From the UHGV virus genome UHGV-0188329: DNA of 41,700 nucleotides, one strand, 5' to 3'. The notes below the pieces were generated by a model that saw only the letters and a program-made list of their open reading frames with translations, made no database searches and was not told the origin of the DNA. The position numbers and the translations under genes were made by a program. Source of the stretch: a virus. Positions within the stretch are counted from its first letter, which is position 1; the number at the start of each line of letters is the position of its first letter. Shown here piece by piece: positions 7,097-41,700 of this stretch.

Positions 7097-7904
7097 GTTA
7101 GCTGATTACAGGCCTCAACTGGAGGTCGTGGAGCATCGCGTGGCAGATACCGAAGATGGTTTCATGCGCGTTGCTAACGAGATTACCGACAGTCTGCTGA
7201 TGGCTGATTTAACCGTCCGGCAGTTGAAGGTGATGCTCGCTATCATGCGCAAGACATACGGATTCAATAAGCCGATGGATCGACTCACAAACACGCAGAT
7301 AGCAGCCATGACAGGTATTCATCACACTCATGTTTGCGCTGCCAAGCGCCAGCTTATTGAGCGTAAATTCCTCATTGCTGATGGCGTGAAAATCGGAGTG
7401 AACAAGGTGGTTTCGCAGTGGATTAGCCAGGACAGCTTAACATTAGCTAAAACAGCTAATAAAACATTAGCCAAGTCAGCTAATGGGTATAAGCCAAGTC
7501 AGCTAAACACAAAAGACAATATACAAAAGACAATAAATACAAATACCCCCTTACCCCCTAACGGGGGCGGCGATGGGCAGGTTAAACCTGAACGTCGCAA
7601 GGCAGAACGAATCGACTACGAATCCTTCCTGAACGCCTACAACACCGAAGTCGGTGACAGACTTCCACATGCTGTTGCGGTCAACGAGAAACGCAAACGT
7701 CGCCTGAAGAAAATCATTCCGCAACTGAAAACGCCAAACGTGGACGGTTTCAGAGCGTATGTCAGGGCGTTTGTGCATCAGGCCAAGCCGTTTTACTTCG
7801 GAGACAACGACACGGGCTGGACGGCAGATTTTGATTACCTGCTGAGGGAAGACTCGTTAACGGGAGTTCGGGAAGGGAAGTTTGCAGACAGGGGGATTGC
7901 ATGA
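7083..7904 (+). CDS. O: Replication initiation protein (lambda O-like)
   Basis: Position after cII; contains internal iteron array and AT-rich tract as in lambda O/ori; stop overlaps helicase start. Confidence 0.7.
7433..7545. repeat. Candidate origin of replication: iterons plus AT-rich tract inside the O-like gene
   Basis: AGCCAAGTCAGCTAA at 7469-7483 and 7492-7506 (23-bp period) with related CATTAGCTAA/CAGCTAA copies upstream, then A-rich run 7510-7545. Confidence 0.5.
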
Positions 7905-9277
7905 GACAGGATATCGAAGCGAGCGTTATCGGTGGCCTGCTGATTGGTGGATTAACACCAACCGCCAGCGACGTTCTGGCAACGCTTGAGCCGGAAGCGT
8001 TTTCAATTCCGCTCTACCGGAAAGCCTTCGAGGTTATCCGCAAGCAGGCGCGAAACAGAAACCTAATCGACGCGCTGATGGTTGCCGAGGAGTGCGGAGA
8101 GGAGCATTTCACGTCAATCCTGATGACCAGCAAAAACTGCCCGAGTGCCGCAAACCTGAAGGGATATGCCGGAATGGTCGCGGATAACTATCACCGCCGT
8201 CTGGTGCTGGAAATCATGGATGAAATGCGTGAACCAATTCAGAGCGGAACCATCGACGCATCGAGTCAGGCGATGGATGAACTTGTAAAACGTCTCTCAG
8301 CTATCAGAAAGCCCCGTGACGAGGTTAAACCTGTACGGTTAGGGGAAATCATCACTGACTACACTGACACGCTTGACAGGCGTCTGAGGAACGGAGAAGA
8401 GTCAGATACCCTGAAGACCGGAATCGAAGAACTTGACGCCATCACCGGAGGGATGAACGCAGAAGACCTGGTGATTATCGCCGCTCGTCCTGGTATGGGG
8501 AAAACCGAGCTGGCGCTGAAGATTGCCGAAGGCGTTGCAAGCCGCGCTATTCCTGGTTCTGACGTCCGGCGCGGAGTGTTGATTTTCTCGATGGAAATGA
8601 GCGCATTGCAGATTGCAGAGCGAAGCATTGCCAACGCCGGGAGGATGTCGGTTAGCGTGCTGCGAAATCCTGCATCGATGGATGACGAAGGCTGGGCGCG
8701 TGTTGCTAACGGCATGAGTCAGCTTGCAGATTTGGATGTATGGGTAGTCGATGCCTCGCGGTTATCGGTCGAAGAAATACGCTCAATCGCAGAACGGCAC
8801 AAACAGGAAAATCCAAACCTGTCACTCATCATGGCGGATTATCTTGGCCTGATTGAGAAGCCGAAAGCAGACCGCAACGACCTCGCAATTGCTCACATCT
8901 CCGGAAGCCTGAAGGCGATGGCGAAAGACCTGAAAACGCCTGTTATCTCCCTGAGTCAGCTTTCGCGCGATGTTGAGAAGCGACCAAACAAACGCCCGAC
9001 AAACGCAGATTTGCGTGATTCAGGAAGCATTGAACAGGACGCAGACTCAATCATCATGCTCTATCGGGAAGCGGTATATGATGAGAACAGTAGCGCCGCG
9101 CCATTTGCTGAAATCATCGTGACGAAAAACCGTTTTGGCTCGCTTGGTACAGTTTACCAGCGGTTCTGTAACGGACACTTTGTTGCATGTGACCAGGATG
9201 AAGCCAGACAGATTTGCACAACATCAAATGCACCTGCTGCGCGTGGCAGACGATATGCACAAGGGGCTGACGTATGA
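7901..9277 (+). CDS. DnaB-like replicative DNA helicase
   Basis: 458 aa; Walker [10 protein letters not shown], Walker B-like LIMADYLG; DnaB-family layout. Confidence 0.85.
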
Positions 9278-9302
9278 CCATCTACATCACTGAGCTAATA
9301 AC

Positions 9303-9334
9303 AGGCCTGCTGGTAATCGCAGGCCTTTTTATTT
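9303..9334 (+). terminator. Intrinsic terminator between helicase and nin region (tR2-like)
   Basis: AGGCCTGC/GCAGGCCT stem followed by TTTTTATTT. Confidence 0.55.
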
Positions 9335-9350
9335 GGGGGAGAGGGAAGTC

Positions 9351-9791
9351 ATGAAAAAACTAACCTTTGAAATTCGATCTCCAGCACATCAGCAAAACGC
9401 TATCCACGCAGTACAGCAAATCCTTCCAGACCCAACCAAACCAATCGTAGTAACCATTCAGGAACGCAACCGCAGCTTAGACCAAAACAGGAAGCTATGG
9501 GCCTGCTTAGGTGACGTCTCTCGTCAGGTTGAATGGCATGGTCGCTGGCTGGATGCAGAAAGCTGGAAGTGTGTGTTTACCGCAGCATTAAAGCAGCAGG
9601 ACGTTGTTCCTAACCTTGCCGGGAATGGTTTTGTGGTAATAGGCCAGTCAACCAGCAGGATGCGTGTAAGCGAATTTGCGGAGTTATTAGAGCTTATACA
9701 GGCATTCGGTACAGAGCGTGGCGTTAAGTGGTCAGACGAAGCGCGACTGGCTCTGGAGTGGAAAGCGCGATGGGGAGACCGGGCAGCATGA
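9351..9791 (+). CDS. ninB: NinB (Orf-family recombination mediator)
   Basis: [23 protein letters not shown] matches lambda NinB; ATG at 9351 with G-rich RBS preferred over the TTG at 9333 in the ORF track. Confidence 0.8.
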
Positions 9792-9961
9792 TGCGATGTT
9801 ATCGGTGCGGTGAATGCAAAGAAGATAACCGCTTCCGACCAAATCAACCTTACTGGAATCGATGGTGTCTCCGGTGTGAAAGAACACCAACAGGGGTGTT
9901 ACCACTACCGCAGGAAAAGGAGGACGTGTGGCGAGACAGCGACGAAGTATCACCGACATAA
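9788..9961 (+). CDS. ninD: NinD-like small Cys-rich protein (57 aa)
   Basis: ATGA overlap with ninB stop; CYRCGEC ... CLRC zinc-finger-like motif; lambda nin-region order. Confidence 0.5.
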
Positions 9962-10104
9962 TCTGTGAAAACTGCAAATACCTTCCAACGAAACGCTCCA
10001 GAAATAAACGCAAGCCAATCCCAAAAGAATCTGACGTAAAAACCTTCAATTACACGGCTCACCTGTGGGATATCCGGTGGCTAAGACATCGTGCGAGGAA
10101 ATGA
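9928..10104 (+). CDS. ninE: NinE-like protein (58 aa, GTG start)
   Basis: AGGAGG RBS 4-5 nt before GTG; basic small protein; below ORF-track cutoff. Confidence 0.45.
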
Positions 10105-29264: not shown

Positions 29265-30329
29265 ATGTCTCTTAACTGGATGCGCCATTTTGAGCTGCAA
29301 CTGTTGGACCAGAACGGGCAGGGCGTTTCCCTGTCTGACTTTAAGGTCACGTTCCAGATCGAGTGGGCAGACACACGCTGGCCACGCGTGGCGAACGTGA
29401 AAATTTACAACCTTTCGACCGATACCACGAACAAGATACTTGGGCAGGAGTTTGCCAAAATTCGCATCATTGCCGGGTATGACGGTATAGTGCCGGATGT
29501 TGATGCGAGCCAGGTTGGTGTGTCCCGGGAGATTTCACCAGACCAGATAGGGCAGGTGAACGGTCAGAACTACGGCCTGATTTTTGACGGTGATATTCGC
29601 TTCACCGTCACCGGGAAGGACAACATTACGGATTCCTGGGTGTTGATTCAGGCCATTGGTGATCACGAAGCGTTCCTCTATGCGACCACCATCACCACGC
29701 TTGCCGCTGGCTATACCGTTGCGGATCTGCACCGGGCGACGATGCAGGATTTCAACGCGTTCGGCGTGACACAGGGCATTACCGGCGATTTTCCTGATAC
29801 CGTGTTTCCTCGTGGCCGCGCGATTTACTCATCCAGCCGCAACGTGATGGATAATATTGCTGCGCAGTGCAAAGCGACATGGCAACTGGTGGATGGTCAG
29901 GTCCAGATGGTGCCGGAGGATAAATATATTCACGAAGCCATTGTGTTGAATGCCAATACTGGCCTGATCGGTATGCCGCAACAGACAATGGGCGGCGGCG
30001 TAAACGTGCGGTGCCTGATAAACCCAAACATCCGCATTAATGGTCTTATCCAGCTCGATCAGGCTTCGGTGTACCGCGCCGCGCTCGGCAATAGCGAAAT
30101 CGCACAGTCGCCCGGTCGTATCACTGAAACGGAAGAGAACGGCAACCGCGCACTGACCGGCACAACGTCACAGGCTGCCAGCATTGCGACAGATGGCGTT
30201 TATATCGTCAAAGCTATCGACTATACTGGCGACACCAGAGGTCAGGCGTGGTACATGGATTTGATGTGTTTTGCGCGTGGCAGTCGTGATTTAGTTAATG
30301 CTGGTGCTATGCAAAAAACAAACTACTGA
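29265..30329 (+). CDS. Putative baseplate hub / late control D-like protein
   Basis: 354 aa in baseplate cluster. Confidence 0.45.
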   Translation: MSLNWMRHFELQLLDQNGQGVSLSDFKVTFQIEWADTRWPRVANVKIYNLSTDTTNKILGQEFAKIRIIAGYDGIVPDVDASQVGVSREISPDQIGQVNGQNYGLIFDGDIRFTVTGKDNITDSWVLIQAIGDHEAFLYATTITTLAAGYTVADLHRATMQDFNAFGVTQGITGDFPDTVFPRGRAIYSSSRNVMDNIAAQCKATWQLVDGQVQMVPEDKYIHEAIVLNANTGLIGMPQQTMGGGVNVRCLINPNIRINGLIQLDQASVYRAALGNSEIAQSPGRITETEENGNRALTGTTSQAASIATDGVYIVKAIDYTGDTRGQAWYMDLMCFARGSRDLVNAGAMQKTNY

Positions 30330-30339
30330 GGTACGGGAC

Positions 30340-30675
30340 GTGAAACTCGTAATTTTTATCATTGCAGCATTATTTTCTTTCCAAGCTATTGCTGATTCTC
30401 AGTGTGGTGATTTCAAAATCCATTGGGCTGATGATGGTTTCGCTCGCGTAAACGGAGCTAAACCTGAATCGCAAAAAGTGACATTTCTTAAAAATGACGG
30501 TGATTATAACAACGTCAAAATTGAATGGCGCTTAGCGACCAATCAACCAGGGCGATGGGTAGGAATGGAGTTTATTGGCCGTAATGGTAAAGCAATCCTG
30601 AATGCTCAGTGGCTGCAAGCCAGCATGGATTCGCCGCGTCAGTATGCAACATACGACTGCCGAAAAGTAAAATAG
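30340..30675 (+). CDS. Moron-encoded small secreted protein (about 111 aa precursor)
   Basis: GTG start with GAGG 9 nt upstream; Sec signal peptide MKLVIFIIAALFSFQAIA then DSQC; 2 Cys in mature part; AT-rich relative to flanking tail genes. Confidence 0.5.
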   Translation: MKLVIFIIAALFSFQAIADSQCGDFKIHWADDGFARVNGAKPESQKVTFLKNDGDYNNVKIEWRLATNQPGRWVGMEFIGRNGKAILNAQWLQASMDSPRQYATYDCRKVK

Positions 30676-30693
30676 CCCGCCAGATAGGCGGGC
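30664..30693 (-). terminator. Terminator hairpin between the convergent moron genes
   Basis: GCCCGCC/GGCGGGC stem with AGAUA loop; on minus strand followed by UAUUUUACUUUUCG, 5 nt after stop of the DUF4236 gene. Confidence 0.5.
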
Positions 30694-30698
30694 ATGCG

Positions 30699-30989
30699 TC
30701 AAAAATATTGAGCTTTAATTATAATAAACACAATAATTACGAACAGGATGTTTCTAATTATTTTTTGCTTATGAGTAAGTTGTTTTTTTTCTGTCGATTT
30801 CCCGGGAGAGTAAAGGTTAGTGGTATGCGACAGCCCCGTGCCGGGAAGGCCATTTGTCATCTTTACGCCTTTTTTTCCGATGTTAATGGTGGAACCTTTA
30901 CCACCAATTGAAGTGCTTACTCCGCTTTTACTAATGTTGATCGCGAGTCCGGGCGCAATCCGGATTCTTTTACGAAATCTAAATCCCAT
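30699..30989 (-). CDS. DUF4236-family protein with C-terminal transmembrane helix
   Basis: N-terminus MGFRFRKRIRIAPGLAINISKSGVSTSIGGKG matches DUF4236 signature; C-terminal IIRNILFVIIVFIIIKA helix; AGGAG SD 7 nt upstream; AT-rich. Confidence 0.6.
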   Translation of the reverse strand: MGFRFRKRIRIAPGLAINISKSGVSTSIGGKGSTINIGKKGVKMTNGLPGTGLSHTTNLYSPGKSTEKKQLTHKQKIIRNILFVIIVFIIIKAQYF

Positions 30990-31176
30990 TTGTTACTCCT
31001 GTAGTCAATAATGCGATGGTGCAGGTCCACTCTATGGCGGCTTCATGGCTGAAATTGATTTTCAATGCTTACTTGTTGCAAACATATCCTAATACACCTT
31101 GTGAATGTGTGCCATTGCAGCGGAAAAGCCTTACTTCACACTGATGTGGCTTAGTTACTAAGAGATAATTGATACC

Positions 31177-31201
31177 AAACCAGCTTCGGCTGGTTTTTTT
31201 A
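31177..31201 (+). terminator. Intrinsic terminator immediately upstream of the baseplate spike gene
   Basis: AAACCAGC/GCUGGUUU stem with UUCG tetraloop followed by UUUUU; no plus-strand ORF of 60 aa or more upstream within the moron. Confidence 0.55.
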
Positions 31202-31211
31202 TGGGGGTTTT

Positions 31212-31952
31212 ATGCCAATTCCAACTCAATCACAGATCGGCGGTGAGCAGCAGACCGCGCAGGCCATTGTCGATTCGGTGTCTACCCAGATGCGCGTAGC
31301 GATGCCCGGCATCATTCAGTCGTTCGATCCTGACACTGTTACCTGCACAGTAGAGGTAGCGCTTCGCGGTATTGTTGGCGATGGCTCCACCGAATTAAAA
31401 CCGCTGGTGGATGTGCCGGTTATCTTCCCGCGCGGCGGCGGTTGCACGCTGACCTTTCCGGTAAAAGAAGGCGACGAGTGCCTGCTGATCTTTGCCGACC
31501 GTTGCATCGATTTCTGGTGGCAGAGCGGCGGCGTTCAGGAGACCGTCGACCCGCGCCAGCATGACTTATCTGATGCGTTCGCCATCGTTGGCCCGCAGTC
31601 GCAAGCGCAGAAAATCAGCGGTATCAGTACCAGCGCCGCGCAGCTGCGAACCGATGATGGCTCGGCGTTCGTAGAGGTCGCAGCAGGGCATAACATCACC
31701 GTTAAAACGCCGGGCAAGCTTACGGCTACGGCTGAGGGTGGAACGACAATCACATCCCCGACTATCACGCTGAACGGCAACGTAACGATTAATGGCAATC
31801 TGTCTCAGGGAATGGGAGAAAGTGGTGGTACTGCGACGATGCTTGGGCCGGTTACGGTAACGAATGATGTGACAGCTTCAGGTATAAGTGTCGCCACGCA
31901 TAAACATGGCGGAGTTCAGGCAGGCGGGGGAACTACTGGAGGGCCGCAATAA
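31212..31952 (+). CDS. Baseplate central spike protein (gpV-like)
   Basis: 246 aa; Gly/Thr-rich C-terminal repeat region ending ATHKHGGVQAGGGTTGG typical of spike tips. Confidence 0.6.
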   Translation: MPIPTQSQIGGEQQTAQAIVDSVSTQMRVAMPGIIQSFDPDTVTCTVEVALRGIVGDGSTELKPLVDVPVIFPRGGGCTLTFPVKEGDECLLIFADRCIDFWWQSGGVQETVDPRQHDLSDAFAIVGPQSQAQKISGISTSAAQLRTDDGSAFVEVAAGHNITVKTPGKLTATAEGGTTITSPTITLNGNVTINGNLSQGMGESGGTATMLGPVTVTNDVTASGISVATHKHGGVQAGGGTTGGPQ

Positions 31953-32305
31953 TGCGATACCGTCGCGAAGATGCTGACGGCGATTACACTTTCGGGCAGG
32001 GTGACGACACCTTCCTTATCGACAGTCCGGAATGTGTCGCCCAGGCCGTGAAAACCCGTTTCGAACTGTGGCGCGGTCAGTGGTTTCTCGATCTGACGGA
32101 AGGCACGCCGTATGTTCAGTCAGTGCTTGGGAAACAGCGATCAGACGTCTACATCCTGGCTATACGCGAACGCATACAGGACACGCCGGGCGTTCTGTCG
32201 ATTCTTTCCTTCGATACCAATTATGACGGCACCAGCCGCCGCGTCACTTTCACTTCCTCCATTGACACAATCTACGGCCAGACGACTGTAACAAGCGAGG
32301 CATAA
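31952..32305 (+). CDS. Baseplate wedge protein (gpW/gp25-like)
   Basis: 117 aa between spike and J-like genes. Confidence 0.5.
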   Translation: MRYRREDADGDYTFGQGDDTFLIDSPECVAQAVKTRFELWRGQWFLDLTEGTPYVQSVLGKQRSDVYILAIRERIQDTPGVLSILSFDTNYDGTSRRVTFTSSIDTIYGQTTVTSEA

Positions 32306-33505
32306 ATGGCTTTGAACCTCGACACGCTGGGGCTATCGGCAACGGTAACCGCCCAGGGGATTAGTGCGCCTGATTACCAGACAATCCTCGATACACTGAC
32401 CAGCTATTTCAGGCAGATTTACGGTAGTGATGCCTACCTCGAACCAGACAGCAAAGATGGGCAAATGGTCGCGCTGGTGGCTCTGGCTGTGCATGATGCT
32501 AACAATACCGCTATCGAGATCTACAACTCGTTTTCACCGACGACAGCGCAGGCCGCAGCGCTTAGCAGCAATGTGAAAATTAACGGGATCACGCGAAAAG
32601 TAGCGACAAACTCTACTGCTGACCTTCTGTTAACCGGTACGGCGGGCACGACTATCACGAATGGCTCCGCACGGGATAAAAACGGCATTATCTGGAATTT
32701 TCCCGCGAGTGTAGCAATCGGGGTTGATGGTACTGTGCTGGTGACGGCCACATGTGCGAATAGCGGTTCGGTTGCGGCGATGGCCGGGACTATCACCACC
32801 ATTAATACACCGACTCGCGGCTGGGTGTCGGTAACCAACCCGGCTGCGGCTACTGTCGGTTCACCAGCTGAAACCGACGCAGAGCTGCGCATCAGGCAGG
32901 GGCAAAGCGTCGCTCTGCCGTCACTCACACCGTTTGAAGGTGTCGACGGTGCGATCGCCAACGTTGCAGGCGTGACTCGTCACAAGCTCTACGAGAATGA
33001 TACTGGTGCTACCGACAGCAACGGGCTGCCTCCTCATTCCATTTCCGCCATCGTCGATGGTGGGGATGTTACCGAGATAGCTCAGACCATCAGGGGGAAT
33101 AAAGGGCAGGGAACGGCAACCTACGGGACAACTTCTGTCACGGTGCCGGATACTTACGGTAATCCTCACGTCATCAGTTTTTCACGCTCTACCGATGTGC
33201 CAATTTTCGTAGCCATTACCCTGAAAGTTTTTACCGGGTATACCTCTCAAATCGGCGAGCAGATCAAACAGGCTGTTGCCGACTATATTAACGGCCTGAC
33301 AATTGGCGACGACGTTCTGCTGAGCCGTATTTATTCCCCGGCAAACCTTGGTGTTGTGAGCGGCGGTAATGCCCGATATTACGACATTACCGAACTGCTG
33401 ATCGGTAAGTCGTCTGGCAGCGTATCGGCATCAAATATTGATATTGCCTATGATGCTTCGGCGTCCTGTAGCACCGCGAATATCACAATCACGGTGACCT
33501 CATGA
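32306..33505 (+). CDS. Baseplate J-like protein
   Basis: 399 aa after W-like gene; V-W-J order. Confidence 0.6.
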   Translation: MALNLDTLGLSATVTAQGISAPDYQTILDTLTSYFRQIYGSDAYLEPDSKDGQMVALVALAVHDANNTAIEIYNSFSPTTAQAAALSSNVKINGITRKVATNSTADLLLTGTAGTTITNGSARDKNGIIWNFPASVAIGVDGTVLVTATCANSGSVAAMAGTITTINTPTRGWVSVTNPAAATVGSPAETDAELRIRQGQSVALPSLTPFEGVDGAIANVAGVTRHKLYENDTGATDSNGLPPHSISAIVDGGDVTEIAQTIRGNKGQGTATYGTTSVTVPDTYGNPHVISFSRSTDVPIFVAITLKVFTGYTSQIGEQIKQAVADYINGLTIGDDVLLSRIYSPANLGVVSGGNARYYDITELLIGKSSGSVSASNIDIAYDASASCSTANITITVTS

Positions 33506-34182
33506 GCAAATACACCGAACTGATCACTAACTACCACGCTACCAAGCCACTCTTTTTTGACCATATAGACCTAAGCACTCGCCCGCTGATTGATGTGTCC
33601 AGGACTATGTCAGGGCTTGTAACAGCCTTCGATATCGATACGGCGGTCGGCGTGCAGCTCGACACGCTCGGGATCTGGATTGGGCGTAGTCGTATAGTCA
33701 GCCAGCCAATTAGCGGCGTTTATTTCAGCTGGGACACTGACGGCCTTGGATATGACCAGGGCGTCTGGCAGGGGCCGTATGACCCGGATTCGGGCTATAC
33801 GACGCTGAGCGATGACACCTACCGCATCATTCTGAAAGCGAAAATAGCGATCAACAACTGGGACGGCCGGAACGACTCGCTGCCGCCCATTCTTGACGAA
33901 GCGACGGCAGGCTCTGGCCTGAAGATGCAGATCGTCGACAATCAGGATATGACGATATCGGTTTGGGTATTTCCCGAGACTGACATTTCGGACGTGTCTC
34001 TCGAACTGATCGCCGCTATCAAGCAGGGCTATCTCACTGTTAAAGCTGCTGGCGTGTGGGCCGGTGATGTTGAAACGCCTTCGGTAGAAACACCGTCTGA
34101 AGGCACTAAGTTTTTTGGGTTTGATATGGATAACGAATACATCGGTGGGTTCGATGTGGGAGCATGGGGGACTTTACTCTAA
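33502..34182 (+). CDS. Putative baseplate/tail fibre attachment protein (gpI-like)
   Basis: 226 aa between J-like and tail fibre genes. Confidence 0.45.
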   Translation: MSKYTELITNYHATKPLFFDHIDLSTRPLIDVSRTMSGLVTAFDIDTAVGVQLDTLGIWIGRSRIVSQPISGVYFSWDTDGLGYDQGVWQGPYDPDSGYTTLSDDTYRIILKAKIAINNWDGRNDSLPPILDEATAGSGLKMQIVDNQDMTISVWVFPETDISDVSLELIAAIKQGYLTVKAAGVWAGDVETPSVETPSEGTKFFGFDMDNEYIGGFDVGAWGTLL

Positions 34183-35120
34183 TGGCAACAAATAACTTTA
34201 AAGCGTTCGCGCTTGATCCTAACGCTAACGTCATGTCACAGGCTGACTGGGAAGCGCTACCGACACTACTATCAGGATTTACTTCAGGTAAGGCATCCAG
34301 TGCGCAGGTGAATAAAGCGCTTAGACAGTCGTTGTTTATTGCTTCTGCCTTGGCTGAATTTGTATCAACGACACTGAATACAGATATCCTTGATGATGGT
34401 GATATCAATGGGTTCATGAGTAAATTGACATCTGCATTACAGTTAAATTCTCCAGGGCGTCTCATTAATATTCAGACTATCACTACTTCAGGAACGTACA
34501 CAAAAACACCTGGTGCGAAGCATGCTTTAATTCGTGCAGTAGGAGGGGGGGCAGGTGGTGGCGGGGTTCCTGCCACTTCATCAACGACTCAGTCAACAGC
34601 AAAAGGTGGGGAATCTGGCGCTTATATTGAAGCGTATGTTGATCTAAGTTCTGTGACTTCTTTATCTGCAATTATTGGTGCTGGTGGAGCTGGAGCCATT
34701 GCTGGCAGCAATAGCGGGACATCTGGCGGAACGACTTCCTTAGGGAGTCTAATTTCATGTCCAGGTGGTGAGCCTGGAATTGGTGGGAATACCAGCGCAG
34801 CAAGTTTTGTATCATCTGACAGGGCATCAAATAAAGCGCCAATGTCAACAGGTAGGGTTTTGGTTTCAACGCCAACATCGTTACCAAACCTTGCCCGCGT
34901 AGCAAATCCATCAGCTCCTACTGTTGGTGGTACCGGTGGATCTAATCCTTTAGGGATTGGGGGGGCTGCTGGAGGCGCCTTACCAGGAACTCCAACAAAT
35001 CCCACCAATGCAACCGGGTATGGTAGCGGAGGTGGAGGAGGTGCATCTGTGGGCGGCAACGCTGCAATGGGAGGAGCCAACGGAGCACCTGGGGTTATTA
35101 TTATTATGGAGTATGCCTGA
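34182..35120 (+). CDS. Tail fibre protein with glycine-rich C-terminal domain
   Basis: ATG at 34182 overlapping upstream stop (TAATG); C-terminal half dominated by GG/GxG repeats; followed by Tfa-like gene. Confidence 0.55.
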   Translation: MATNNFKAFALDPNANVMSQADWEALPTLLSGFTSGKASSAQVNKALRQSLFIASALAEFVSTTLNTDILDDGDINGFMSKLTSALQLNSPGRLINIQTITTSGTYTKTPGAKHALIRAVGGGAGGGGVPATSSTTQSTAKGGESGAYIEAYVDLSSVTSLSAIIGAGGAGAIAGSNSGTSGGTTSLGSLISCPGGEPGIGGNTSAASFVSSDRASNKAPMSTGRVLVSTPTSLPNLARVANPSAPTVGGTGGSNPLGIGGAAGGALPGTPTNPTNATGYGSGGGGGASVGGNAAMGGANGAPGVIIIMEYA

Positions 35121-35518
35121 TGAAATGTGCATTAATAAAAAGCAATCAAGTAATAAATATTATTGAAATAGATGAGGAAGGGATTAATGAATTCACAGGT
35201 GGTCAATTAATTTTAATTCCTGAGGGTGAGGTTGTAGATATTGGGTTTTCGGTTGATGGTGATGCTTTTATACCTCCGCCAATATCTGAGTTGACTGATG
35301 ATGAAATAAAGCAACTGAACGAGTCGAAAAGAAAAGAGAAGGTGGCTATTGCGGTTAATTACATATCGCAAAACTCATTGGATTCTAAACTAATGCTTGG
35401 AATGCTTTCTGATGAAGATAAACGCAAATATGCTCAAATTATTACTTACATAGATGATTTGAATTCAATGACATTGGGTTCCTTTTCAGATGTGACTTGG
35501 CCTAAGCAACCGTTTTAA
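35120..35518 (+). CDS. Tail fibre assembly protein (Tfa-like)
   Basis: 132 aa directly after tail fibre gene; C-terminal VTWPKQP resembles the Tfa C-terminal W-P motif; AT-rich. Confidence 0.4.
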   Translation: MKCALIKSNQVINIIEIDEEGINEFTGGQLILIPEGEVVDIGFSVDGDAFIPPPISELTDDEIKQLNESKRKEKVAIAVNYISQNSLDSKLMLGMLSDEDKRKYAQIITYIDDLNSMTLGSFSDVTWPKQPF

Positions 35519-35523
35519 CTAAT

Positions 35524-35549
35524 TGCGCACGGATAGAATTCCGTGCGCA
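35524..35549. other. Perfect 10-bp stem-loop between convergent tfa and acyltransferase genes
   Basis: TGCGCACGGA-tagaat-TCCGTGCGCA; no adjacent U-tract. Confidence 0.4.
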
Positions 35550-35556
35550 GTGGAAA

Positions 35557-36600
35557 TTACCCTGTAAATATGCTAAGGAATGTTTTTTGAAATGATTTGT
35601 TTTTATTTTTAGCGTTAATTAATGCTACTATACTAACTTGCAGTTTTACCATTATTGTAGCAAGTGTGTAAGTAAGTACATAACTTATTAAATAATGACT
35701 ACCTATTTTTTGACACATTATGATAAATGGGATGTGCCATAAATAAATCCAAATGGAGTTTTGGGATATGAATGAAACAACCTGCCATAATCTTAAAACC
35801 TTAAGTAAAAGAACAGCTTTGTTTGAGAGCAGATAGACTACGAATATCATAAAGGTTGCATAGGACATGTAATATATCCCAGGTGGGTACTTGTCTGACT
35901 GAGTTGGATTAAAGGCACCCAAGGTAATAATGTAATATGCAGTCATGGCAGAAAATAATAATCCACAGATAATGGTTGGGGGTAATAATTCTTTATGATC
36001 AGTGCTTGCAATTTTATAACCAATGATGAAAGCAAGTGTATAAGATATAGAGTTTGATATGTATGTCCCCAAAAGTATATAAATGCTCAACTTGTCAATT
36101 CCATTATACAATGGAATTAACTGGCTATTAATTAATAAAAATGACGCGGATATTGTTAATATCGCTTTTAAATTAAGTGTGTATAGTTTTGGAGGAATGA
36201 AAGTGGCTATCACTGATATTATGAAAAAGAGTCTAATAACCCACACATAACCAAGCCCACTGGATAATGCGAATGATGTTATTATAATTGACTTATTGTA
36301 AGTAAAGTCTTTTATATTAAAAATAAACGAAATGATTTCATTTATTAAGAAAAATGCCGCGAAGAAAATCCAAGTTGGTAAAACTAAACGGCGAAATCGA
36401 GAATTAATATATTTTATTCTGTTGCTATGGCGATGTTCGGTTACACAAAAGGACATCCCCATAACCATAAACATTAAAGGAACATCAAAGTTTCGCAGTT
36501 GAGCTAGCCATAAAGGAGGCTGGACATGGGCTAGAATGATTAGAGAAAGCCCGAGAAATCTTAAAAAATCTATTTTATCAATACGCATGACTTCGTCCAT
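35557..36600 (-). CDS. Acyltransferase family 3 membrane protein (O-antigen acetylase Oac-like, lysogenic conversion candidate)
   Basis: 347 aa, multiple hydrophobic helices; N-terminal IDFLRFLGLSLIILAHV typical of acyltransferase-3; AT-rich; located between tail fibre genes and int. Confidence 0.7.
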   Translation of the reverse strand: MDEVMRIDKIDFLRFLGLSLIILAHVQPPLWLAQLRNFDVPLMFMVMGMSFCVTEHRHSNRIKYINSRFRRLVLPTWIFFAAFFLINEIISFIFNIKDFTYNKSIIITSFALSSGLGYVWVIRLFFIISVIATFIPPKLYTLNLKAILTISASFLLINSQLIPLYNGIDKLSIYILLGTYISNSISYTLAFIIGYKIASTDHKELLPPTIICGLLFSAMTAYYIITLGAFNPTQSDKYPPGIYYMSYATFMIFVVYLLSNKAVLLLKVLRLWQVVSFISQNSIWIYLWHIPFIIMCQKIGSHYLISYVLTYTLATIMVKLQVSIVALINAKNKNKSFQKTFLSIFTG

Positions 36601-37076
36601 TAGATTTTATAGATCAACGATTATACATTAGTATTGATCGGCTATGACACCATTGCTTATAGGTATGCTCTCTGTTGTATGAGTACAGCTCAGGAGCTTC
36701 GCCTTGGTTTGTTATAGCTTACGGTGCCGATTTACGATGTCGGAGTGCCGACACCGTATCGCAAATTCCCGGTAGGCAGTGGTTAGACACGATGCAGGCC
36801 GCCGGTGATTGTTGAGACTGGCAGCCTGCATAATTTACAGCCCAACCTGGCGAACTGTCGGGAACTCAGATACCAGCCACATATCGGCTTCTTCAAACAT
36901 ATCCTCGTTTCTGGTCAAGTGAGGAGTGAAAATTCATGTGCCATTTTTGTGTCACACAAGGTGAAGCATCTAACATTGTCTTGCATCATGTGCCATTAAG
37001 TTTCTTATAGTGAATGCGGCAATGTGTATGTAAAACAGCTAGTTAAATGTGATTCTACTAATTCGTAATGCGAAGG

Positions 37077-38270
37077 TCATGTGACGTTACCGTCTATCCA
37101 GTCCGCCCACCATTGCATCATTTCTCTGCGCTTATCGAGATACTGAGCATGATTGTAAATTCCACGCACAGATCCGCCGTTGGCATGTGCCAGTTGCACT
37201 TCAATGGCGTCGGCAGGCCATTCGTGCTCGTTCATAATCGTGCTGAATTCATGCCTGAATCCGTGACCGCTTTCCAGACCTTCATAGCCGATTTGTTTGA
37301 TCACAAGCAATACCGCGTTCTCGCAGATTGGCTTCTTCTTATCGTTGCGCCCGGCAAAAACAAACTCTGAGACTGGTTTAGTGATGGAGCTTAGCGTAGT
37401 GAGAAGCTCAACCACCTGGTCTGACATAGGAACAACATGAATTTTGCGTCCCTTCATCACATTGGCGTCGATGGTGATAATCCTGTTTTCAAAATCGACG
37501 TTCTTCCATAGCATGGAACGAAGCTCTTTTGTTCTGAGGGCTGTGTAGCGTAAAACTTTGGTCGCAATGAGCGATACGATACTTCCTGAAAATGTTGCAA
37601 GTGCTTTGTTGAATTCCGGGATCTGGTCTGCAGGAAGAAACGGGAAGTTCTTCTTGCGGTATCCCTTCATGGCGTCAGCAAGGTCAGGTGACGGGTTATA
37701 TTTAGCCCTTCCGGTGACAATAGCGTAACGGAAAACCTCGCCGCATCTTCTGCGTGCTTTGTTGGCTCGCTCCATTGCGCCGCGATCTTCAAATCTGCGG
37801 ATTACTTCCAGCAGTTTCATCGGCTCAATATCCTGAATTTCAAGGCCGCCGATGATAGGTAAAATGTCGTCATCAAACATCTTTGCAAGTTCATTTGCAT
37901 AGCCTACTGACCAGACTTGCTTCTTGTGCTCGTACCATTCCTTGTAAATGGCGCTAAAGGAATTGTTGTTAGACGAAGCCTTTTTCGCCTTTACCGGATC
38001 GATGCCAACCGAGATGTCTTTCCTCGCAGTCCATGCTTTATCCCTTGCCTCCTGCAAAGTCATAAGCGGATATTTTCCTACGGTCAGTATTTTTTCCTTA
38101 CCGTCAATCTTGTAGCGAAGCTGCCATACCTTTTTCCCGGATACAGGGACATAAAGGTACAGGCCATTACCATCGAGAAGGCGATATGGTTTTTCTTTCG
38201 GCTTTGCTGCTTCAATCTGCTTAACGGTGAGCATGGGTAAAAATCCGGTGGGTAAAATTATTTTATCCAC
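37077..38270 (-). CDS. int: Tyrosine integrase (P4-like, tRNA-associated)
   Basis: N-terminal LTVKQIEAAKPKEKPYRLLDGNGLYLYV arm-binding-like segment; C-terminal GHGFRHEF ... Y catalytic motifs; adjacent to tRNA 3' end; alternative ATG start near 38234. Confidence 0.85.
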   Translation of the reverse strand: MDKIILPTGFLPMLTVKQIEAAKPKEKPYRLLDGNGLYLYVPVSGKKVWQLRYKIDGKEKILTVGKYPLMTLQEARDKAWTARKDISVGIDPVKAKKASSNNNSFSAIYKEWYEHKKQVWSVGYANELAKMFDDDILPIIGGLEIQDIEPMKLLEVIRRFEDRGAMERANKARRRCGEVFRYAIVTGRAKYNPSPDLADAMKGYRKKNFPFLPADQIPEFNKALATFSGSIVSLIATKVLRYTALRTKELRSMLWKNVDFENRIITIDANVMKGRKIHVVPMSDQVVELLTTLSSITKPVSEFVFAGRNDKKKPICENAVLLVIKQIGYEGLESGHGFRHEFSTIMNEHEWPADAIEVQLAHANGGSVRGIYNHAQYLDKRREMMQWWADWIDGNVT

Positions 38271-38395: not shown

Positions 38396-38470
38396 TGGTG
38401 TCCCCTGCAGGAATCGAACCTGCAATTAGCCCTTAGGAGGGGCTCGTTATATCCATTTAACTAAGAGGAC
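38396..38470 (-). tRNA. argW: tRNA-Arg (anticodon CCU), argW-type; prophage integration target
   Basis: Reverse complement reads GTCCTCTTAGTTAAATGGATATAACGAGCCCCTCCTAAGGGCTAATTGCAGGTTCGATTCCTGCAGGGGACACCA with T-loop GTTCGATTC, anticodon loop CUCCUAA and 3' CCA. Confidence 0.85.
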
Positions 38471-38545: not shown

Positions 38546-39478
38546 TTATGCCGGGTTTTTATAATTTTTCTTAATGTTTTCCGCACGTTCTGCTTTTTGG
38601 CGTGCTTCTGCTTTACGCTTATTGCTCATGTCGTTACGAATCTGTGCATGACTCATTAACGCGAAGATAAAGGTGCCGCCGCAGATGTTCCCCGCTAAAG
38701 TAGGTAGTGCGAAGGGCCAGATGAAATCGCTCCAGTGCAGCGTACCGTTAAACACCAGATAGAGGATTTCAACAGAACCGACCACGATATGGGTGGTGTC
38801 ACCCAGGGCAATAAGCCAGGTCATCAATATAATCACCACAATCTTTGCCGCACCCGCTGCAGGAAACATCCAAACCATAGTGGCGATCAGCCAGCCGGAA
38901 ATGATCGCGTTGGCAAACATCTCGCTGGGGGTGTTCTTCATCACATCCATGCCGATTTTGACAAATGCATCGCGAGTTTCTTCATTGAAGATAGGCATAT
39001 ATTCAAATGCCCACGCCGCAATACCTGTCCCGAGAATATTACCCAGCAGCACGACGCCCCATAACCGTATAAGTAAGCCGACGTTGCTCATTGTCGGTTT
39101 TTGCATGACGGGTAGTACCGCAGTCACGGTATTTTCGGTAAATAATTGCTGGCGGGCCATAATGACGATAATAAAACCAAAGGTATAACCGAGATTCTCC
39201 AGCAAGAAGCTGCCCGGCACACCTTCCAGTTCGACATGAAATATCCCTTTTGCCAGTAACGAAGCGCCCATCGACAGACCCGCCGCAATGGCTGACCACA
39301 GTAGCGCCATTGCGTCGCGTTCCAGCTCTTTTTCACCATCCTGGCGGATATGCTCATGAATTGCCATCGCCCGGGAGGGGAGTCGGTCTTCATCTATTTC
39401 TATTTTTTTGCCGCGCTCTTTTTCTTCGCTCTCAACTTCAATTTCGTCGCTGTGTTGATCAATTTTGTCGTTGTCCAT
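38546..39478 (-). CDS. yfdC: Formate/nitrite transporter family inner membrane protein (YfdC-like)
   Basis: 310 aa polytopic membrane protein; position next to argW and mlaA matches the E. coli K-12 arrangement. Confidence 0.75.
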   Translation of the reverse strand: MDNDKIDQHSDEIEVESEEKERGKKIEIDEDRLPSRAMAIHEHIRQDGEKELERDAMALLWSAIAAGLSMGASLLAKGIFHVELEGVPGSFLLENLGYTFGFIIVIMARQQLFTENTVTAVLPVMQKPTMSNVGLLIRLWGVVLLGNILGTGIAAWAFEYMPIFNEETRDAFVKIGMDVMKNTPSEMFANAIISGWLIATMVWMFPAAGAAKIVVIILMTWLIALGDTTHIVVGSVEILYLVFNGTLHWSDFIWPFALPTLAGNICGGTFIFALMSHAQIRNDMSNKRKAEARQKAERAENIKKNYKNPA

Positions 39479-39771
39479 GGTCTCTTCTCTTGAATTAGCA
39501 CGTATAGCTAAAGCGTAGCGGCTTTTTTGCTCGCAACTGACGGGAGTTACTCTGAAAATGTAGAAAAGGCTGCGTTTGCCTTTTTCTGTTTCTATAGAAT
39601 CAAGTAGCCTACAGGGCGGCGATTACCAGGCTATGATCAAATCAGCAAATCAGGGCGTCTGGACATCAGTTGACGTGCTGTTACAATCGCCCACACCTAA
39701 ACAGGCGGATACGGTATCGTTCCGTCATGGATGGCAAACTGCATAAGCCATAAAAAAACAGGGAGACATTT

Positions 39772-40527
39772 ATGAAGCTTCGCCTGTCGGCGCTTGCTCT
39801 GGGAACTACGCTTCTGGTGGGGTGTGCGAGTTCCGGTACAGATCAGCAAGGGCGTTCTGACCCGTTAGAAGGGTTCAACCGCACCATGTACAACTTCAAC
39901 TTCAATGTATTAGACCCGTATATTGTTCGACCGGTCGCTGTCGCCTGGCGTGATTATGTTCCGCAACCGGCGCGTAACGGTTTGAGCAACTTTACCGGCA
40001 ACCTTGAAGAACCTGCGGTGATGGTTAACTACTTCTTGCAGGGCGACCCTTATCAGGGGATGGTCCACTTTACCCGCTTTTTCCTGAACACCATTTTGGG
40101 GATGGGCGGCTTTATTGATGTTGCAGGGATGGCGAACCCGAAACTGCAACGGACTGAACCTCACCGCTTCGGTAGTACGCTTGGTCATTATGGCGTGGGT
40201 TATGGGCCGTACGTTCAGTTACCATTCTACGGTAGCTTCACGCTGCGTGATGACGGTGGTGATATGGCGGATGGTCTTTACCCGGTTCTTTCCTGGTTGA
40301 CCTGGCCGATGTCTGTGGGTAAATGGACGCTTGAAGGGATCGAAACCCGCGCTCAGCTGCTGGATTCCGACGGTCTGCTGCGTCAGTCGTCCGATCCTTA
40401 TATTATGGTGCGCGAAGCGTACTTCCAGCGTCATGATTTCATCGCTAATGGCGGCGAACTCAAACCGCAGGAAAATCCGAACGCGCAAGCGATTCAGGAT
40501 GATTTAAAAGATATCGATTCTGAATAA
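39772..40527 (+). CDS. mlaA: Outer membrane lipoprotein MlaA (VacJ)
   Basis: 251 aa; lipoprotein signal MKLRLSALALGTTLLVGC; translation matches MlaA/VacJ. Confidence 0.9.
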   Translation: MKLRLSALALGTTLLVGCASSGTDQQGRSDPLEGFNRTMYNFNFNVLDPYIVRPVAVAWRDYVPQPARNGLSNFTGNLEEPAVMVNYFLQGDPYQGMVHFTRFFLNTILGMGGFIDVAGMANPKLQRTEPHRFGSTLGHYGVGYGPYVQLPFYGSFTLRDDGGDMADGLYPVLSWLTWPMSVGKWTLEGIETRAQLLDSDGLLRQSSDPYIMVREAYFQRHDFIANGGELKPQENPNAQAIQDDLKDIDSE

Positions 40528-40542
40528 GAAATAAATAAAAAA

Positions 40543-40568
40543 GGTGAGTCGCAAAACTCACCTTTTTT
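40543..40568 (+). terminator. Intrinsic terminator downstream of mlaA
   Basis: GGTGAGT/ACTCACC stem flanked by A-run upstream and TTTTTT downstream. Confidence 0.6.
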
Positions 40569-40708
40569 GTTGTTATCCCTCAATTACCACAAGTAAAAGG
40601 AGATAAACCGACAATGACCCGGACGTAATGATGTAAAAATACTGATGTTCGTCATTGACTATTTCCGATATTCAGTCGTTGAAAAATCAAAAAACTGGAA
40701 AAATAATT

Positions 40709-41700
40709 TTAAATATCATCAAAATTAACACCTAACGCAGATAGTTGATTAATTTCATTTTGATATTCCGTCTGGCAATTTTGAAGCCTTTCTTCAATTT
40801 TACCTTCGAGTTTCTTATAGTGCACATATATATTTTGAGAATGGTCAGTGTTAACTTCGTTATCGAATAAAGTAGAAACTATTTCTTTTACATTATTGCG
40901 TCTATATTTTGCATTGTCCACTTGAAAATTATATCTTATTGCTCGACCATAACGTTTAAAAACTTCGTTTGGTTCTTTCAGTCTTTCCCCGTTGAGTTCG
41001 TTTACAACTTGATGATTTATACCTGTTGCAAATAATTCTGCCATGAGAGCTTTATTGCTTTCAAATGACGCTGAAGCATTCCTGGCGTTTTCACTACAAT
41101 ATTGTGTGAGACTATCACCATTAATACGAATTCCTCTTTTAATGTGGTAGTTGTCCTGATCGTAGTAACCGAGCGATAAATAATCGTTTCCGTTTATATT
41201 TTTAATTACAATGGCGAGAGTGTTGTATTTTTTATCTTTACCGTGCCAGGTAAATAAGTCCGTTGGTTTGCTTTTCTCGTTCTCATCGAATTTCGTTACA
41301 GTATGTATGAGGTTACGTGATATTTTATCGAAAATGAAATCAGGATCTCCATTATATATTTCTTTTATTGCGCTGAAGATATTTTTCTTGTTATTGATAT
41401 CATCAGTATTCTCTACTACATTTTCATTGATGATGGTTTGGCCGACTTTTTTGTTTTCATCGTTCGCAGGTGATTTTGTTGGTTCTTGATTATCAAAAGT
41501 AATATCGTCTGTATCATTGGAGTCAATGCCAATATCACTACGATCATCAATACCACTAACAATAATACCATCAGTAAATTCAGCATTATTTATATCATCA
41601 TGAGTCTTCTCAACTATGTTGTCATTAATGATAGCACGGACGAGTTCTTTGTCTTTATAGCTCGCAAGTAATTTTATTGTTTCTTGGTTATCGATACCAA
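40709..41700 (-). CDS. AT-rich chromosomal gene, 5'-truncated by window edge (possibly yfdF-like)
   Basis: Minus-strand frame stays open upstream of the ORF-track Met at 41044 (checked across 41030-41080 and 41580-41700); assignment to yfdF rests only on K-12 gene order. Confidence 0.4.
   Translation of the reverse strand, partial: GIDNQETIKLLASYKDKELVRAIINDNIVEKTHDDINNAEFTDGIIVSGIDDRSDIGIDSNDTDDITFDNQEPTKSPANDENKKVGQTIINENVVENTDDINNKKNIFSAIKEIYNGDPDFIFDKISRNLIHTVTKFDENEKSKPTDLFTWHGKDKKYNTLAIVIKNINGNDYLSLGYYDQDNYHIKRGIRINGDSLTQYCSENARNASASFESNKALMAELFATGINHQVVNELNGERLKEPNEVFKRYGRAIRYNFQVDNAKYRRNNVKEIVSTLFDNEVNTDHSQNIYVHYKKLEGKIEERLQNCQTEYQNEINQLSALGVNFDDI

Follow-up and report, generated by a model that had tools for sequence, protein, structure and literature searches.

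What does the membrane acyltransferase encoded beside the integrase gene (int) of the virus genome UHGV-0188329 act on, and does its gene form part of a serotype-conversion cassette, as was originally predicted from the DNA letters? The window analysed is the whole stretch of 41,700 nt, and all coordinates refer to it. By its sequence, the phage is a SEN34-like lambdoid myovirus of the Brunovirus type, present as a prophage at argW. The gene in question is a 347-amino-acid (aa) open reading frame (ORF) at 35557-36600 on the minus strand, encoding an integral membrane acyltransferase-3 (AT3) protein. The gene is located on the same strand as int, 476 bp downstream of it, and is convergent with the genes of the tail fibre (34164-35120, plus strand) and of a Tfa chaperone (35120-35518, plus strand). 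The ORF coordinates and a match to the Pfam family PF01757 agree with the original prediction on these points. A gene of glycan-modifying type and foreign composition here adjoins int/att and a receptor-binding gene, which is the layout of a serotype-conversion cassette. The AT3 protein most likely represents a previously uncharacterised enzyme lineage within a known kind, the phage serotype-conversion acyltransferases.

The AT3 gene and its product

The AT3 protein matched PF01757 (Acyl_transf_3) over residues 8-316, corresponding to positions 2-318 of the 326-position profile (E=7.9e-22; 78.2 bits against a cut-off of 31). There was no match to PF19040; the protein therefore has an AT3-only architecture and lacks the fused periplasmic SGNH domain, unlike OafA, OafB, and OatA. 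Most homologues begin at the second Met (M5, ATG at 36588), and by comparison with them the start is likely at 36588, giving 343 aa. The AlphaFold2 model is confident (pLDDT 94.8, pTM 0.92), and its fold is that of a polytopic, all-helical transmembrane acyltransferase. The transmembrane acyl-CoA acyltransferases HGSNAT and GWT1, whose structures are solved, are eukaryotic, larger, and 10-16% identical to the AT3 protein; they offer a structural analogy or remote homology only. The protein had no match in PADLOC, nor in the PDB by sequence.

Proteins of the AT3 family have an R/K-X10-H motif in transmembrane helix 1 (TMH1), which contains an essential Arg and the catalytic His; an RXXR motif is located at the cytoplasmic face of TMH3. 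Both motifs are described as essential and as lining the acetyl-CoA pore (PMC9833829, PMC9558356). Both are present in the window protein, as R14-X10-H25 and R68-F-R-R71, and R14, H25, R68, and R71 are invariant across an alignment of 52 homologues. The residues R36-N-F-D39, K237-Y-P, and W284/Y286/W288/H289 are likewise invariant in these homologues.

The base composition of the locus is foreign. The block from about 35120, noticed earlier as AT-rich, does stand out: 35120-36600 has a GC content of 0.33, whereas the mean over the window is 0.497 (sd 0.051), and a value this low occurs in only 0.13% of windows of the same size. The AT3 gene has a GC content of 0.32, and the Tfa gene 34%. At third codon positions, the GC content is 0.31 for AT3 and 0.28 for Tfa, compared with 0.52 for int and 0.62 for the baseplate wedge gene. 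The composition and layout suggest that the AT3 gene is a phage "moron", a self-contained and horizontally acquired cassette.

Signals for expression were examined on both sides of the gene. A conserved block of about 115 nt (36601-36715, minus strand) accompanies the AT3 gene as a leader that may bear its promoter, with a perfect -10 element, TATAAT, at 36625-36620 on the minus strand. This leader with its TATAAT is kept upstream of the P0001-, P0005-, and P0004-type relatives and of the L083 gene, although the neighbourhoods of these genes differ; in other relatives, a separate TATAAT precedes the ATG by 25-35 nt. Two GATC sites (36612-36615 and 36636-36639) flank the -10 element. Phase variation of the Dam/OxyR type was considered and rejected, because the Enterobacter (L011) and L083 copies, which share the leader, have lost the promoter-proximal GATC; more distant relatives have no GATC near the promoter. 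Between the convergent Tfa and AT3 stop codons, a 10-bp G+C-rich inverted repeat at 35524-35549 was identified by RNA folding (-20.7 kcal/mol, z=-3.4). This stable hairpin is a possible bidirectional transcript end.

Exchange at the integrase junction and at the fibre tip

The integrase gene (37077-38270, minus strand) encodes an IntS-type tyrosine integrase, recognised by its Pfam integrase domains, which is 97% identical to the Int of Shigella phage Sf6 and 98% identical to IntS of E. coli K-12. Its ORF opens with a GTG, 12 codons ahead of the Met used by these two proteins; the true start is probably M13, at position 38234. ARAGORN identified tRNA-Arg(CCU), which is argW, at 38396-38470 on the minus strand. 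The attachment core (38396-38410) is the 3' end of this tRNA gene, as aligned with the Sf6 attP core and with the K-12 argW/CPS-53 boundary.

DNA homology to Sf6 and K-12 runs from argW/attP through 37098 and then ends, 21 nt inside the 3' end of int. Past this junction, Sf6 has oac, convergent with its tailspike gene; the CPS-53 prophage of K-12 has gtrA-gtrB-gtrS, followed by tfaS; and the window prophage has a DinI remnant and AT3. Since the homology stops at 37098, the cargo past int was exchanged. The alignments thus show one integrase/attP module serving three surface-modification cargos, oac, gtrABS, and AT3. Three expectations of the original prediction were confirmed here: K-12 does carry int and gtrABS at argW (intS-gtrABS-tfaS), oac of Sf6 adjoins int in a topologically identical slot, and cargo has been exchanged next to int. 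The Sf6 oac gene, like AT3, is immediately downstream of the integrase at the same argW attP and convergent with the gene of a receptor-binding protein. The CPS-53 genes (yfdG-yfdH-yfdI) share the site mlaA-yfdC-argW and the slot between int and the tail fibre assembly genes; they differ in forming a three-gene system for bactoprenol-glucose glucosylation, whereas the window has a single acyltransferase with other chemistry.

The DinI remnant (36836-36906, minus strand) consists of the last 23 codons and the stop of a DinI-family gene. Its translation, EDMFEEADMWLVSEFPTVRQVGL followed by the stop, reproduces without change the C-terminus of the DinI that is found intact beside the same AT3 in strain FACU 2024 of E. 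coli. The remainder of DinI was lost where the int module joins; the ancestral cassette was therefore tfa/AT3/dinI.

The opposite side of the cassette was compared with the sister prophage L005, which is integrated at the same site and carries the 57% AT3 allele. The DNA of the two prophages is 100% identical up to about 34850 and again at 36500-37100, and 47-83% identical in between. Within the fibre gene, the identity drops to 83-66% after about 34850. The divergent block comprises the last ~70 fibre codons (about 34900-35120), the whole Tfa gene, and AT3 residues ~35-347; both prophages share the N-terminal part of AT3, the leader, and the DinI remnant. The Tfa proteins share 48% aa identity and the AT3 proteins 58% overall. 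Tfa varies together with the rest of the cassette, and its proposed membership in the AT-rich cassette was thereby supported. The comparison indicates that the fibre tip, Tfa, and the AT3 body are exchanged together as one unit. This co-exchange could mean that enzyme and fibre are functionally coupled, with the enzyme masking the structure to which the fibre attaches, or it could reflect simple linkage; the data do not distinguish between the two.

The slot behind the fibre was also surveyed across the phage lineage. The wedge protein retrieved 50 loci, about 43 of which had enough sequence past the fibre for assessment. In 9 of the ~43 loci, the slot after fibre/Tfa is occupied by PF01757 genes, which belong to several lineages unrelated to one another; one of these genes (L071) encodes an AT3+SGNH protein. 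The slot holds gtrA-gtrB with a third membrane protein in three loci (Pfam GtrII in one, no family in two), and a dual GT1/GT2 glycosyltransferase in one. This last protein is a 640-aa GT1+GT2 fusion in "Candidatus Pantoea alvi" (L050, 9991-11913). Hydrophobic ORFs farther from the fibre in related loci were rejected as cargo, as they are chromosomal transporters. As judged from these gene contents, the post-fibre slot is a hot spot for glycan-modifying cargo.

Relatives of the AT3 gene and the surrounding prophage

Relatives of AT3 were found in only 3 of 5426 complete E. coli genomes. In strain FACU 2024, a full AT3 gene lies in a tfa-AT3-dinI fragment beside the insertion sequence (IS) IS1; in JX21CE35, the AT3 gene is cut by IS1; the third relative is a partial match, 74% identical over 20% of the query. 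The fragment and IS1 adjoin a CP4-57-like island (yfjR, ykfI/yafW, and others) in both strains (L001, FACU 2024, 7288-10033; L002, JX21CE35, 7288-8853), and an Avs2 defence gene is located near the truncated AT3 in JX21CE35. A metagenome-scale protein search identified a small enterobacterial clade at 75, 59, 58, 57, 56, 55, and 44% identity. Beyond this clade, several hundred environmental proteins with ~30-40% identity were found, which are often named "fucose 4-O-acetylase-like" automatically.

The relatives occur in different surroundings. Genes of the P0001 (identical) and P0005 (57%) types are always convergent with Tfa and the glycine-rich fibre of this lineage, at several chromosomal sites, adjoining int or not. 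The P0003 gene (59%) belongs to a P2-like prophage and is flanked there by the Tfa (gpG) and sheath genes. The P0009 gene (44%; E. marmotae and others) is located at argW, directly after int-gtrA-gtrB-gtrC and ahead of tail fibre remnants. The 355-aa relatives (40-45%) on the IMG/VR viral contigs L086-L090 are convergent with the gene of a 791-aa tailspike, which combines the domains of G7C gp63.1 with a GDSL esterase domain. G7C gp63.1 itself deacetylates O-antigen, an activity required for infection (PMC10743462). The L086-L090 phages thus seem to possess an acetyl "writer" as well as an "eraser". On the other side of AT3, a UmuC-like polymerase gene is present in L087-L089 and probably in L090. 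A search for L086-L090 in E. coli genomes gave only short, partial matches. The P0004 gene (58%) is found in Enterobacter with IS elements on its flanks; the P0008 gene (55%) is part of a small islet in the chromosome, where another AT3 gene, which is disrupted, follows it (L079, 6631-7638); and the Brenneria homologue abuts a ugd/wzx/glycosyltransferase cluster. Receptor-binding modules, an operon for O-antigen glucosylation, and a tailspike of the O-acetyl esterase type thus recur as neighbours; all are indicative of O-antigen chemistry, without amounting to proof.

The structural region of the window is similar to that of Citrobacter phage Omnitron, at 93% identity across 73% of the query, and to those of E. 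coli phage vB_EcoM-689R2 and Salmonella phage SEN34. The latter, which is the type of the genus Brunovirus, combines lambda-like regulation with a contractile tail (PMC5261728). Its structural genes share 84% nt identity with those of the window, and its gene order is as here: fibre, Tfa, a convergent AT3-type gene, and int. This architecture is therefore already present in a sequenced relative. However, gp29 of SEN34, which is annotated as an "O-acetyltransferase", belongs to an unrelated AT3 lineage; it is itself uncharacterised and is not mentioned in PMC5261728.

In the window, the fibre gene encodes a glycine-rich protein of 318 aa (Gly_rich_2, Pfam PF21722; PHROG tail fibre families), and the 132-aa Tfa chaperone belongs to Caudo_TAP (Pfam PF02413, E=1e-10; PHROG 188/136). 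Upstream, at 31212-34182 on the plus strand, are baseplate genes (spike, sheath-initiator-like, Baseplate_J-like, and DUF2612 wedge), assigned from the ORF list, by Pfam for the wedge, and from the annotations of relatives. A second low-GC cargo slot (0.41-0.44) is present within the baseplate gene block (window 30298-31212; L006, 13428-14248; L009, 5955-6775). It contains an opposite-strand DUF4236 ORF (30699-30989) in the window, and a Fic protein with a Phd/YefM-type antitoxin in sister prophages. Beyond argW, yfdC-like (minus strand) and mlaA-like (plus strand) genes occupy 38546-40527. Several E. coli genomes match this stretch of chromosome at 100% identity; therefore the host is E. coli and the site is argW. 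A second att site was searched for and was not found within the window. The region past mlaA (40400-41700) is AT-rich (32-35% GC) and contains a 111-aa ORF (40709-41044, minus strand) with no convincing family match; IS903B is present near this region in some E. coli genomes.

The acceptor of the acyl group

We consider it fairly probable that the AT3 protein acetylates the O-antigen. In the mechanism proposed by analogy with characterised AT3 proteins, the conserved arginines R14, R68, and R71 would bind cytoplasmic acetyl-CoA, the presumed donor, and the thioester would be presented to the periplasm-facing His25. Transfer of the acyl group, probably acetyl, would then take place on the periplasmic side, with a hydroxyl of a surface-polysaccharide sugar as the acceptor. 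If the gene is expressed in the lysogen, the cell would display an O-acetylated, serologically altered O-antigen. Such an O-antigen would hinder the adsorption of O-antigen-dependent phages, plausibly including the phage itself. The choice of acceptor is drawn from the position of the gene, the neighbours of its relatives (gtrABC and esterase tailspikes), and precedent. The nearest precedent is the Oac (OacA) of Sf6, which is also AT3-only, similar in size (333 against 347 aa), and has the R-X10-H and RXXR motifs. The acceptor of Sf6 Oac is Rha I, which is 2-O-acetylated (PMC9558356).

Several observations weigh against this assignment. The AT3 protein has no significant pairwise similarity to Sf6 Oac (BLASTP E=0.6) or to the SEN34 gp29 acetyltransferase (E=1.4); a tblastn search against 50,697 phage records gave no match at E<=1e-3; and the protein has no family in NCBIfam or PHROGs. 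Orthology to Oac/OacA-OacD or to the SEN34 acetyltransferase was rejected on the BLASTP and tblastn results, and the description "Oac-like", as originally given, holds at the superfamily level only. The phages are also different: Sf6 is a P22-like podovirus with an endorhamnosidase tailspike, whereas the window encodes a SEN34-like myovirus with fibre and Tfa. Since the fibre here is short, glycine-rich, and without an enzymatic domain, it gives no indication that the phage receptor is the O-antigen. The Methylophilus and Cellvibrio homologues are located in uninformative housekeeping loci. For expression, the AT3 leader was not called by a consensus promoter scan, its -35 element being weak. 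The hairpin between Tfa and AT3 lacks a U-tract and was not called by a terminator scan, on which grounds a classical intrinsic terminator was rejected. Finally, AT3-only proteins also modify enterobacterial common antigen (ECA), capsules, periplasmic glucans, Nod factors, and antibiotics (PMC9558356).

This breadth of substrates leads to the possibility that AT3 acylates some other envelope glycan, such as ECA, group 1/4 capsule or colanic acid, lipopolysaccharide (LPS) core, periplasmic glucans, or peptidoglycan. The enzyme would still be a conversion or exclusion factor in that case, which we regard as possible but rather unlikely. AT3-only enzymes (WecH, OpgC, IcaC, and others) cover all such substrates (PMC9558356), and clade members appear in several sources as "fucose 4-O-acetylase-like" or "peptidoglycan/LPS O-acetylase"; the distant homologues are single conserved chromosomal genes. 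Many clade members with 35-56% identity, all AT3-only as here, are assigned by JGI to COG3594 ("NolL / fucose 4-O-acetylase-like"), but this name is an automatic annotation from which fucose specificity is not inferable for the window protein. In K1 strains, argW is presumably occupied by a capsule O-acetyltransferase prophage (CUS-3/NeuO). However, the closest relatives of AT3 keep company with gtrABC, receptor-binding modules, and tailspikes of the O-antigen deacetylase type, and an allelic diversity that co-varies with the fibre tip fits better with a variable acceptor, such as the O-antigen, than with ECA, peptidoglycan, or another conserved acceptor.

It is also conceivable, but improbable, that AT3 is a silent or host-mismatched passenger, intact in a strain where the acceptor sugar is absent, and kept only through its linkage to the fibre tip/Tfa cassette. 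The great rarity of its relatives (3 of 5426 genomes) is consistent with this, as are the truncation of one E. coli copy by IS1, the location of another in a decayed fragment beside IS1, and the decay of the adjoining DinI gene. On the other hand, the ORF is full-length and keeps every invariant residue of the family, the TATAAT leader is conserved across contexts, and the divergent alleles (57-75% identity) are all still intact beside Tfa. A non-glycan small molecule, such as an antibiotic or a signalling compound, is a very improbable acceptor. Some Streptomyces AT3 proteins do acylate such molecules, and the AT3-only enzymes MdmB, CmmA, and Asm19 act on natural products (PMC9833829, PMC9558356); but there are no biosynthetic neighbours at the locus, and the phage receptor-binding/int slot is repeatedly filled by glycan-modifying genes.

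The O-antigen thus remains our preferred acceptor, and the co-variation with the fibre tip invites a further, more speculative proposal. The fibre tip, Tfa, and the AT3 body might form a co-adapted "recognise-and-mask" cassette, swapped as a whole between phage backbones that are identical, in which each AT3 allele would acetylate exactly the epitope bound by its linked fibre tip. In the relatives with esterase tailspikes, the acetyl mark would then be a private barrier against competitors, written in the lysogen and erased by the virion. We think this unlikely.

Prophage-borne O-antigen modification alters serotype, vaccine epitopes, and phage susceptibility. For E. coli prophages, such modification is documented for gtr glucosylation (PMC7685785); the term "O-acetylation" was matched only in the reference list of that paper. 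The locus contributes an uncharacterised AT3 lineage with no entry in the databases of phage protein families, and it provides a case in which one integrase/attP module carries oac, gtrABS, and AT3 interchangeably. The window prophage and L005 form a clean natural allele pair, with flanks that are 100% identical in the DNA compared, for the co-evolution of receptor recognition and masking. Together with their deacetylase tailspikes, the clade relatives may offer a testable link between the "writer" and the "eraser" of an acetyl mark in temperate phages.

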